Shown piece by piece: positions 35,987 through 40,611 of a stretch of DNA of 64,000 nucleotides. The notes under the pieces were generated by a model. That model worked only from the letters and a program-made list of their open reading frames with translations, had not been told where the DNA came from and ran no database searches. Source of the DNA: a virus; IMG/VR virus record IMGVR_UViG_3300044638_007100; one strand, 5' to 3'. Made by a program: the position numbers and the translations under genes. How positions within the stretch are numbered: the stretch's first letter is position 1; every line of letters begins with the position of its first letter.

Positions 35987-36022
35987 ATTCAGTTTATATT
36001 TAATGACCGAACTGACGGTCGA

Positions 36023-36096
36023 TGGGTCTGGCGGGACTCGAACCCGCAACTTCCAGGTTAAAAGCCCGTTACTGCTACCAGTTGAGTTACAGACCC
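36023..36096 (-). tRNA. tRNA-Lys(UUU)
   Basis: Loop CTTTTAA. Confidence 0.88.
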
Positions 36097-36156
36097 ATAT
36101 AATATAGGATTTCTATTTAATTGTCAAGGTTCTGGTGGTCTCTCAACCACCCTTTT

Positions 36157-37400: not shown

Positions 37401-38042
37401 TCAAACTTCTGCTAGGATCAGTCGGTTGGCATAATTATAAGCAAAATCAGTTCTTGCTCCGTGATGACCCCAACGGATCCACTTTCTAGCAAGTCTCATA
37501 TAATCATTAATAGACTTACCAGGAGTTTTCATTTGATTCTCAATCATCTTCCAATCACCTTCGTGCAGCATATAGTCAAGTTGTGCATCCAGTGAGGAAG
37601 GATTAGCACCAATACGAGCAGCATGTCTTCCTAGTCCATAAAAACGAGGAGCATTAGTCCATTGAATAATGCCATACCCCCCACCACAGTTAGGATAGGA
37701 AGTTCTAGCACCACCTTCACAGATATTAGGAGTGAAGGTAGATTCTTGTCGGATATTGCCCATAATGGTTGCTAGGGCGTTTTTGTCACTGATTCCTCGT
37801 TTCTGTAAGAATTCCAGAGTACGGGACTCATTGGTATTACATCCTTTACAAACTAATCGTTTTACTTTAGGTTTCTCGGGAACAACCTCTTTGGTCTCTG
37901 TCTCTTGAGTAGGCGCTTCAGGAATAATCGCAAATGGCGGTTTTACTGAAGATGTTGCCATACTCGGTGCTGGCAGTGTTGCCGCTGATGTTGCAACCGC
38001 ACCTAAAAGAGCTACGGTTACATTTGTTAGGTTTTTAAGCAT
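37401..38042 (-). CDS. Secreted phage-tail-lysozyme-family muramidase
   Basis: Signal-like N-terminus MLKNLTNV; ATIMGNIRQES; GYGIIQWT; QLDYM. Confidence 0.75.
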   Translation of the reverse strand: MLKNLTNVTVALLGAVATSAATLPAPSMATSSVKPPFAIIPEAPTQETETKEVVPEKPKVKRLVCKGCNTNESRTLEFLQKRGISDKNALATIMGNIRQESTFTPNICEGGARTSYPNCGGGYGIIQWTNAPRFYGLGRHAARIGANPSSLDAQLDYMLHEGDWKMIENQMKTPGKSINDYMRLARKWIRWGHHGARTDFAYNYANRLILAEV

Positions 38043-38172
38043 TAATTTTAATTGAATTCGGCATCCGTTTAGAAAGGGGGTACACCCAACCTCTCGGAGG
38101 GCACTTTCCACGGCTCTAAGTGTCACATCAATGACTCATAGTAAAAAACCCACCATTTGAGTGGGTCTACGC
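38040..38172 (-). ncRNA. manA-like cyanophage RNA motif (5' UTR of the lysozyme gene)
   Basis: GAGCCGTGGAAAGTGCCCTCCGAGAGG..GGTGTACCCCCTTTCTAAACGGATG; structured and GC-rich; from recollection, not a search. Confidence 0.5.
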
Positions 38173-38805: not shown

Positions 38806-39285
38806 TTATAATTTTCTCCAAAGTTTTCCTTCAGCAATTCTTCTTCTCAATAATCCTGCTTCTACATCACTTCCAGGATTTTTGTAAAGTTCAAGAGCAG
38901 CAGGAACTTTACCCCATTCTTTATTCTTAAGAACTCTAGTTATGGTCACATATCCTCGACTACCATAAAAATTAGCACCAAGGTTATAAGCAAAAGACAA
39001 TAAAGCACCGCGCTGATAATCATTCATCTCACTCCAATAAGGTATTTGTTTCAGTGCTGAAAGAAATTCATTTTGTATCTGCCAATCAAACAATTCATCT
39101 GCTTCTTTCTGAGTAATCTTTTCTCCTAACTTAAAAGGACTTCCATCCTTCTTACGAGTGCTTCCCCATCCTATAGTATAAGGTTTTCCTTTAGTATAAG
39201 GATCTGGATATGCTACTAATTTACATTTTTCAAATTCTTTAATGAGTTCTATTCCTTCTTTCAGAATAGAACTTTCTACTTTTTT
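38806..39285 (-). CDS. GH24 phage lysozyme domain without its own start codon (-1 frame of the upstream ORF)
   Basis: Open from 39288: ...IKEFEKCKLVAYPDPYTKGKPYTIGWG...GALLSFAYNLG...GLLRRRIAEGKLW; in-frame TGA at 39291-39289 and no ATG before the catalytic residues. Confidence 0.8.
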   Translation of the reverse strand, partial: KKVESSILKEGIELIKEFEKCKLVAYPDPYTKGKPYTIGWGSTRKKDGSPFKLGEKITQKEADELFDWQIQNEFLSALKQIPYWSEMNDYQRGALLSFAYNLGANFYGSRGYVTITRVLKNKEWGKVPAALELYKNPGSDVEAGLLRRRIAEGKLWRKL

Positions 39286-39304
39286 ACATCAAAGATTCTT
39301 CCCC
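39245..39304 (-). promoter_or_regulatory. Programmed -1 ribosomal frameshift signal
   Basis: GGGGAAG SD-like element, A AAA AAG (39285-39279), TAG, then a 10-bp AGTTCTATTC/GAATAGAACT hairpin. Confidence 0.7.
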
Positions 39305-39971
39305 ATCCAGTCCTATCTTTTCCTTTCTCTAACCAACGATACATCAGATCAGACTTTTTGTAAACAGCACCTTTGCCATTTGTTGCAGGACCAGTATATC
39401 CATCATTCAGAGAACCATAAGGATCATTTACCACATAATCTTCACCCTTCTTACCGATGACTACAACCATGTGCCCACCAGAAGGAGCAGATAGAGTACC
39501 CCTGTGATAGATCCCGATAACAACAGGTCTCCCAGCAGCAAGCTCACGATCAAGATCAGCAAAAGAAAGATTATAACTAAAGTGTGACTTAACTCCATAA
39601 CCTTCCAGAACTTTTGTCTGAACGGTATGATCAGTTGTGTCACCAATTGCAAATACTTTCTGAATATAAGAATCATCACCCTTTGCTCCCTTAAGAGTCC
39701 CTGGTTTAAAGTATTCCAGACACATCGCACAAGAAGATGAATTACAGGTTCTTTGAGCATCTCTGTAATTATCTGTTTGTGGATAATAAGGAACTGCGAG
39801 AACACCAGGAACTGCTGGTTTTGTTCTGAAAATACGAACCCAGTTTGAAGTATCATCAATCAAATCTGGATTCTTATCTGCAAGATCCACTTCAAGTTGC
39901 TCTACTGCAGCAACGTGTTTTGGATTATTAGGATCGAAATGTTGAAAAAAGTTATGAAGATCAATTTTCAT
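39276..39971 (-). CDS. C39-like peptidase (putative cell-wall hydrolase) with cyanobacterial-type N-terminal domain
   Basis: LAVPYYPQ; CNSSSCAM; GRPVVIG; GHMVVVIG; VNDPYG. Confidence 0.8.
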   Translation of the reverse strand: MKIDLHNFFQHFDPNNPKHVAAVEQLEVDLADKNPDLIDDTSNWVRIFRTKPAVPGVLAVPYYPQTDNYRDAQRTCNSSSCAMCLEYFKPGTLKGAKGDDSYIQKVFAIGDTTDHTVQTKVLEGYGVKSHFSYNLSFADLDRELAAGRPVVIGIYHRGTLSAPSGGHMVVVIGKKGEDYVVNDPYGSLNDGYTGPATNGKGAVYKKSDLMYRWLEKGKDRTGWGRIFDVKK

Positions 39972-40004: not shown

Positions 40005-40199
40005 TTAGTATTTCTCACCAATATATTCAAGAGAAAAAATATCATGCTCCTCAATTTTAGGATCTAACCATTCATTAAATTCTTGTTGAATTGAATAAGC
40101 ATTATGATATTCATGCTCCTCATGAATATCACAAAGAACATGAATACGTTCTATTGCCCAATCATGATTAATACGAAGAGTTTCAATTAAAGTTTCCAT
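40005..40199 (-). CDS. Hypothetical protein
   Basis: 64-aa ORF. Confidence 0.55.
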   Translation of the reverse strand: METLIETLRINHDWAIERIHVLCDIHEEHEYHNAYSIQQEFNEWLDPKIEEHDIFSLEYIGEKY

Positions 40200-40611
40200 A
40201 GTCTTTTTTTAGATACCTGCCTAGGATATTGCTATTGTAGTATGCTGGACTACCATCGTCAAGTGCTTCCTTCAACACATTATTTAAAAAGAGTTGCTTT
40301 GTTTCTTCATAATTACAATCACCTCTTGTCTTATGAAGACTTATAATTTCTCTAGTAAAAAATTCTTTACCATATTTTTTAATATCTTCTTTAAGTTCTG
40401 GGCAAGAACCATAATACTTTTTCCAATCAGATTCTTGTTTAACTTTTCTTTTTTTTCCTGGAGGAGTTCTAAAAGACCAAAAATATTTCCTACCCCAATA
40501 CTTTCTTTGAGTCTTAGAACAAATTATTAAATATACAAATCCAAAATAGTCTTGAATATCTTCAGTTTCAAAAACTTTTCCTTTGAATCTCCAAGGATTC
40601 TCATAGCTCAT
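40183..40611 (-). CDS. GIY-YIG-like protein
   Basis: FGFVYLI..RKYWGRK..WKKYYGS..YEE. Confidence 0.7.
   Translation of the reverse strand: MSYENPWRFKGKVFETEDIQDYFGFVYLIICSKTQRKYWGRKYFWSFRTPPGKKRKVKQESDWKKYYGSCPELKEDIKKYGKEFFTREIISLHKTRGDCNYEETKQLFLNNVLKEALDDGSPAYYNSNILGRYLKKDYGNFN

Follow-up and report, generated by a model that had tools for sequence, protein, structure and literature searches.

The lysin locus of a lake T4-like cyanophage (IMGVR_UViG_3300044638_007100, analyzed as a 64,000-nt stretch of DNA that we call the window) is in all likelihood a programmed -1 ribosomal frameshift cassette of the dnaX type, from which a peptidase and a peptidase-lysozyme fusion would both be made. 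Judging from sequence comparisons, the lysozyme is very probably produced only through a -1 slip at the end of the peptidase gene, in this phage as well as in the isolate S-PM2 and about 100 uncultured relatives. At the heptamer A AAA AAG, ribosomes on the peptidase mRNA would have tRNA-Lys in both the P and the A site and would be held up by a hairpin that begins 5 nt further on. A fraction would re-pair one base back (AAA AAA) and go on with GTA GAA into the lysozyme, giving a 388-aa peptidase-linker-muramidase protein, while unslipped ribosomes would terminate at the TAG that directly follows, yielding just the 231-aa peptidase. There would be no other way for the lysozyme domain to be translated, and the slip would presumably set a fixed ratio of the two lysis-enzyme forms. 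The original prediction of a programmed -1 frameshift at A AAA AAG with a hairpin is thus supported, now by comparative evidence from about 100 distinct relatives.

All features of the locus lie on the minus strand (Table 1). The 3' end of the peptidase ORF reads GAT GTA AAA AAG TAG, its last four codons being those claimed originally, and the -1 frame reads TGA TGT AAA AAA GTA GAA across the same junction, staying open from the GTA at 39279 for 157 codons; the peptidase and lysozyme frames overlap by two codons. The lysozyme had been described as start-less, and it is: no ATG, GTG or TTG precedes the catalytic Glu, and the earliest such codon in its frame is a TTG at 39093, 3' of the catalytic residues. 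The in-frame TGA expected just 5' of the slip site is also present; in relatives, a TGA or TAA occurs at the same place as a by-product of Phe-Asp/Asn codons. The two predicted product lengths and the junction peptide (IFDVKK/VESSILK, the slash marking the slip) are those that a simultaneous -1 slip would give.

Table 1. Features of the lysin locus and its surroundings in the window, with the hairpin stem classes of relatives
Feature	Position	Strand	Description
Peptidase ORF, zero frame	39276..39971	-	231 aa, Peptidase_C39_2; TAG stop at 39278-39276
Lysozyme, -1 frame	38806..39279	-	157 codons, GH24 (T4-type), start-less; TAA at 38808-38806
TGA in the -1 frame	39289..39291	-	two codons 5' of the slip site; shuts the -1 frame upstream
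Slippery heptamer A AAA AAG (X XXY YYZ)	39279..39285	-	in phase with the peptidase frame
Stimulatory hairpin (putative)	39245..39273	-	5' arm 39273-39263, loop 39262-39256, 3' arm 39255-39245
SD-like GGGGAAG	39298..39304	-	12 nt 5' of the heptamer; role doubtful
tRNA-Lys(UUU)	36021..36097	-	found by ARAGORN; would read both slip-site codons
Stem class			AGTTCTAYTCC / GGARTAGAACT
Stem class			RACAYCAC / GTGGTGTY
Stem class			GCCAACYAAC / GTTGGTTGGY
Stem class			ATCTCCCCG / CGGGG-AGAT
Stem class			CACCAATCGA / TTGGTTGGTG

The peptidase ORF matches the Pfam family Peptidase_C39_2 (PF13529; 1e-13, 52.5 bits, cutoff 24). Among 20 relatives, Cys76 and His167 are strictly conserved, and Cys76/Cys81-84 and His167 are invariant or nearly so. 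A low-confidence AF2 model (pLDDT 65) gave weak Foldseek matches (TM 0.3-0.4), all to papain-like proteins (SpeB, the C39-like 3erv, PCAT C39 and staphopain), which suggests a papain-like fold; a sequence search of the peptidase against the PDB returned no match. The -1 frame covers the Phage_lysozyme profile in full (PF00959, 1.2e-19) and encodes ...LIKEFEKCKLVAYPDPYT..., so the catalytic region predicted for this frame is complete: the Glu, the Asp nine residues on and the Thr-Ile-Gly are all there, and this E..(9)..D..YTIGWG motif places the domain among the GH24 (T4-type) lysozymes. A single family profile, PHROG 3617 (405 positions), covers both parts, the peptidase at 1-235 and the lysozyme at 247-404. 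From family labels such as the PHROG annotation "endolysin", both products would act on host peptidoglycan at lysis; a virion-associated role instead of an endolysin role is possible.

The organization of the junction separates the relatives into distinct forms. Among 80 IMG/VR loci, whose peptidases are 78-97% identical to that of the window at the amino acid level, 53 carry the heptamer with a stop 0-1 codons behind it and a lysozyme in the -1 frame. Phe-(Asp/Asn/Glu)-(Val/Ala/Ile)-Lys-Lys is the C terminus of the peptidase in these 53, in the window and in the isolates S-PM2 and S-SRM01, the two lysines being encoded in A AAA AAG. No heptamer is present in the remaining 27; the peptidase closes with Ile-Phe-Lys-stop in 26 of these, and in 22 of those 26 a lysozyme gene follows with its own ATG overlapping the peptidase stop. 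No intermediate codon choices at the junction were found among the 80 loci. Many of the split-gene relatives (L050, L051, L054-L059, L062, L074-L082) have a lysozyme gene that opens with an extra module of about 55 aa (MSIKFIDA...NHK...HQN...), which precedes the GH24 domain, lies about 165 nt past the peptidase stop and is absent in the frameshifted forms.

Pooled pattern scans of IMG/VR and S-PM2 yielded 101 unique genuine junctions, all with A AAA AAG. Every complete -1 ORF among them (95 of 95) is 138-178 aa long (median 162), and the linkers between heptamer and lysozyme domain vary from 13 to 28 codons with the frame always kept. Read as after a slip, Val-Glu stands directly behind Lys-Lys in 80 of the 101. 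The heptamer, the hairpin and the frame offset, whose conservation had been proposed as a check on the prediction, are thus kept across about 100 distinct relatives, and on these comparative grounds the junction arrangement is evidently under selection.

The heptamer carries this signal through its context. Bare copies of A AAA AAG are not rare in the AT-rich window (50 observed versus 44 expected), so its significance derives from context and conservation, not from the heptamer alone. Across 42 unique junctions the heptamer is present and invariant as predicted: the three third-codon positions inside it never vary, whereas the third-codon positions at -21, -15, -12, -9 and -3 are saturated. 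Since junctions chosen for their heptamer could bias this result, IMG/VR was also scanned for the same context with any GYN AAR AAR allowed; all 75 unique contexts recovered were exactly GYA AAA AAG.

The downstream hairpin is evidently kept by selection as well. In the window, the perfect 10-bp stem predicted 5 nt 3' of the heptamer is there and is extended by one G-U pair, giving 11 bp (10 Watson-Crick plus the G-U) with a 7-nt loop, behind a 5-nt TAGAA spacer at 39278-39274. It folds at -12.6 kcal/mol (z = -4.16), a value matched by none of 200 shuffles. The 3' arm consists of the Gly-Ile-Glu-Leu codons of the lysozyme; in relatives, too, lysozyme codons form the 3' arm, and the 5' arm comes from codons of the linker. 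The DNA behind the heptamer differs widely among lineages, yet a hairpin is nearly always kept, built from at least five unrelated classes of stem sequence (Table 1).

To compare groups, the best hairpin starting 0-10 nt past the heptamer was scored against dinucleotide shuffles. Hairpins of 36 unique frameshift-type junctions (mean dG -13.9 kcal/mol, mean z -3.1) are far more stable than those of 19 unique relatives in which the lysozyme has its own ATGA-coupled start (mean dG -3.9, mean z +0.24; Mann-Whitney p = 3e-9). Of the 101 pooled junctions, 97 have a hairpin at or below -9 kcal/mol (mean -15.4), and only a weak one occurs in the remaining four. Within two of the stem classes, analyzed with RNAalifold and by pair counting, 97.6-99.2% of cells are paired and compensatory changes occur in two and three pairs, respectively; the covariation score was reached by none of 500 shuffles, and pairing collapses to 18-56% when the stem partners are slid against each other.

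Of the three classical stimulators originally proposed, then, the heptamer and the hairpin are conserved, but the SD-like motif, while present, is not specific to frameshifting relatives. GGGGAAG represents conserved Trp-Gly(-Arg) codons that are also found in non-frameshifting split-gene relatives, and its duplex with the anti-SD averages -5.9 kcal/mol in the frameshift group, no stronger than the -6.9 kcal/mol of the split-gene group, so its role as a stimulator is doubtful. The claim that the phage encodes tRNA-Lys(UUU) proved correct: ARAGORN finds 26 tRNAs in the window, including Lys(UUU) and no Lys(CUU). By analogy with dnaX biology, it is plausible that the slip depends on this phage tRNA (PMC5009743).

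Phages with the same two domains in one frame give a further view of the junction. ACG-2014f has a single in-frame peptidase-lysozyme ORF of 405 aa, of which residues 1-235 align to the peptidase of the window and residues 240-403 to its -1 frame; the two domains are 57-59% identical and colinear with the predicted frameshift product. The fusions of ACG-2014f (PHROG 3617) and S-CREM1 (PHROG 10051) are single ORFs that need no recoding, whereas the junction in the window is split. Single-ORF counterparts of the predicted trans-frame product thus occur in nature, as the ACG-2014f alignment and PHROG 3617 show. The correspondence extends to single residues: in-frame fusions (L233-L241) read Phe-Asp-Ala-Lys-Val-Glu-Glu-Lys-Lys, and frameshift forms read Phe-Asp-Ala-Lys-Lys/Val-Glu. 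This colinearity, including the Val-Glu after the slip and seen with ACG-2014f too, adds to the evidence that the heptamer is where translation of the -1 frame starts. The frameshifted form probably arose from a fused gene whose A run changed by 2 nt (GCN AAA GTA GAA versus GCA AAA AA GTA GAA), which would also explain the adjacent zero-frame stop, since TAG sits inside GTA GAA. In a quick peptidase tree, own-start forms are nested inside frameshift forms at several points, from which no order of events was drawn, and well-supported branches force at least four changes, to which no direction was assigned.

Alternatively, peptidase and lysozyme could be two separate genes, with translation of the lysozyme beginning at a linker codon that is non-AUG or near-cognate, or following from termination-reinitiation, and with the hairpin aiding initiation or coupling. 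Some relatives do use coupled ATGA starts, and at 34 of the 101 junctions a GTG or TTG that could in principle start translation lies somewhere in the linker, in the -1 frame before the catalytic helix. However, there is no conserved start-like codon or position: 67 of the 101 have no ATG, GTG or TTG ahead of the catalytic helix, ATG occurs in two only, and the window has no candidate before the catalytic Glu. Separate genes would also leave unexplained the invariant synonymous sites of the heptamer, the -1 frame that is open back to the heptamer through linkers of 13-28 codons, and the match of the post-heptamer residues to in-frame fusions. Furthermore, the IMG/VR relatives whose lysozymes have real ATG starts of their own carry neither heptamer nor hairpin. 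We therefore regard independent initiation as improbable.

If the lysozyme is reached by slipping at the heptamer, the slip could still occur in transcription, with RNA polymerase adding one A in the A6 run so that some mRNAs encode the fusion in one frame. Homopolymer runs can cause such slippage, as in Thermus dnaX (PMC5009743). The S-CAM7 variant discussed below has a longer run, T8. An A6 run, all that the window has, is short for productive transcriptional slippage, and the last G of the heptamer, which is invariant, is relevant to tRNA re-pairing but not to slippage by the polymerase. The conserved structure, moreover, lies 3' of the run at the spacing of about 5-9 nt typical of ribosomal stimulators and would be untranscribed while RNA polymerase is on the run, which fits a ribosomal and not a transcriptional slip. 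Polymerase slippage is thus very improbable, and a heptamer that allows re-pairing, a structure at its customary distance and a stop codon for the short product together fit a ribosomal -1 slip, which is the mechanism we infer. An artefact or decay (a true A7 misassembled as A6, or a recently broken, non-functional fusion gene) is scarcely credible: single-base homopolymer errors are common and relatives with in-frame fusions exist, but A6 is shared by about 100 independently assembled distinct sequences and by both sequencings of S-PM2, which rules out the A7 error, and the lysozyme ORFs are intact (all 95 complete) behind a hairpin that covaries.

Isolate phages show the same junction in several states. 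In S-PM2, the peptidase ends GAT GCA AAA AAG TAA in both the 2005 record (NC_006820) and the resequenced deletion mutant (LN828717), and the lysozyme is start-less in the -1 frame (L002:1493-1980; L226). In the S-PM2 annotation, only the last 219 nt of the lysozyme are called as a "putative lysin" (S-PM2p157 / S-PM2d154), and about 270 nt are unannotated. S-SRM01 (L001:1940-1975) keeps A AAA AAG, but its lysozyme has an ATG that overlaps the peptidase stop (CAATGA) and there is no downstream hairpin (z = +0.44); to judge from its sequence, S-SRM01 seems to be passing between the frameshifted and the split-gene state. Peptidase and lysozyme are separate genes in DSL-LC02 and DSL-LC03. In S-CREM1 (L003:1431-2612), the order of the 393-aa fusion is reversed, with the lysozyme first and then the peptidase.

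S-CAM7 (NC_031927; L227:1892-1908), which belongs to a different genus, has a candidate for a second, different slip site at the same junction. Its peptidase ends GTT TTT TTT CCA CAG TAG, with a T8 run (U UUU UUU), a stop two codons on and a start-less lysozyme in the -1 frame. Three isolates that are identical across the junction and two metagenomic relatives represent this type (L227, L229-L232), and the lysozyme is annotated in them as a fragment, a "lysin" of 219-273 nt. A slip at U UUU UUU would give Phe-Phe/Ser-Thr-Val-Glu, colinear with the Phe-Phe-Ala-Thr-Val-Glu of the in-frame fusion L235. A modest candidate hairpin follows after 5 nt, with an A-U to G-U change in one relative; its z of about -0.2 was scored on a stretch that cuts off the 3' arm. 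This evidence is thinner than that for A AAA AAG, and the T8 run could equally support transcriptional slippage.

Phage -1 frameshifts in structural genes (the tail assembly chaperone G/GT, the T7 capsid 10A/10B) extend structural or chaperone proteins, whereas the frameshift in the window would join two lytic enzyme domains. The window, with an overlap of two codons and a plain hairpin as stimulator, also differs from IS elements: there, the overlap of orfB with orfA runs to tens of codons, and a three-way junction or pseudoknot often serves as stimulator. The IS3/IS911 orfA-orfB arrangement is otherwise similar: orfA carries A AAA AAG or a heptamer like it close to its end, which with a downstream structure gives a two-domain fusion, and the product of the upstream ORF is also made alone, as predicted here (PMC5009743). 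Of the heptamers tested in E. coli, A AAA AAG shifts most readily, and it is the site used naturally in dnaX; this readiness depends on a single tRNA-Lys whose pairing with AAG is weak, and roughly half of bacteria possess just one Lys tRNA (PMC5009743). The tau/gamma system of E. coli dnaX resembles the window in having the same heptamer read by tRNA-Lys(UUU), a simple stem-loop a few nucleotides downstream and two products that share their N-terminal part. The reversed dnaX of some bacteria has the topology seen in the window: its zero-frame stop stands immediately behind the shift site, and slipping yields the long product (PMC5009743). However, dnaX encodes a polymerase subunit and not a phage cell-wall hydrolase, the slip in the window would add a whole second catalytic domain, and the upstream SD stimulator, a trait of dnaX that such cassettes do not universally share, has a counterpart here that is not specifically supported. 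A literature search, with many subscription papers outside its reach, found no description of a frameshift in this or any other endolysin gene, nor of one that links two lytic enzyme domains. As far as that search went, a classical dnaX-type -1 mechanism is new for a lysis gene, and a lytic enzyme would be added to the few genes of bacteria and phages in which -1 frameshifting is used.

These results bear on the gene models of the widely used phages S-PM2 and S-CAM7, in which a "truncated lysin" beside a "hypothetical protein" would be corrected, and on those of about 100 metagenomic relatives with the same problem. In-frame fusion, frameshifted fusion, coupled split genes and reversed fusion form a natural series that lets one ask why a phage wants free peptidase together with sub-stoichiometric peptidase-muramidase, and S-PM2 with Synechococcus WH7803 is a system in which the frameshift is directly testable. 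A more speculative reading, which we consider doubtful, is that recoding has arisen repeatedly at the junction, making it a hotspot (with A AAA AAG installed in the S-PM2/lake clade and, independently, U8 in S-CAM7) and possibly a regulated dial. If it is a hotspot, slip sites would have been installed between lineages that use in-frame fusions or coupled separate genes. If it is a dial, the balance between free peptidase and peptidase-muramidase would shift with the availability of phage-encoded tRNA-Lys(UUU) or with the state of translation in the dying host, and this balance would set the timing or mode of wall breakdown.

Just upstream of the lysin locus (40183-40611, minus strand), the window has a SegE-type GIY-YIG homing-endonuclease-like gene (PF19835, 3e-52), and similar genes flank the locus in S-CAM7, S-SRM01 and S-CREM1; PF19835 genes are often mislabelled "NAD synthetase". 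The mosaic architectures of the lysin locus may perhaps be partly due to these flanking genes. The next gene but one downstream of the locus (37401-38126, minus strand) encodes a second wall hydrolase, a 241-aa protein with a Phage_lysozyme2 domain ("phage tail lysozyme", PF18013, 8.5e-19) preceded by an N-terminal hydrophobic stretch that contains Cys. In S-PM2, a "lipoprotein precursor" is found at a place similar to that of this gene.
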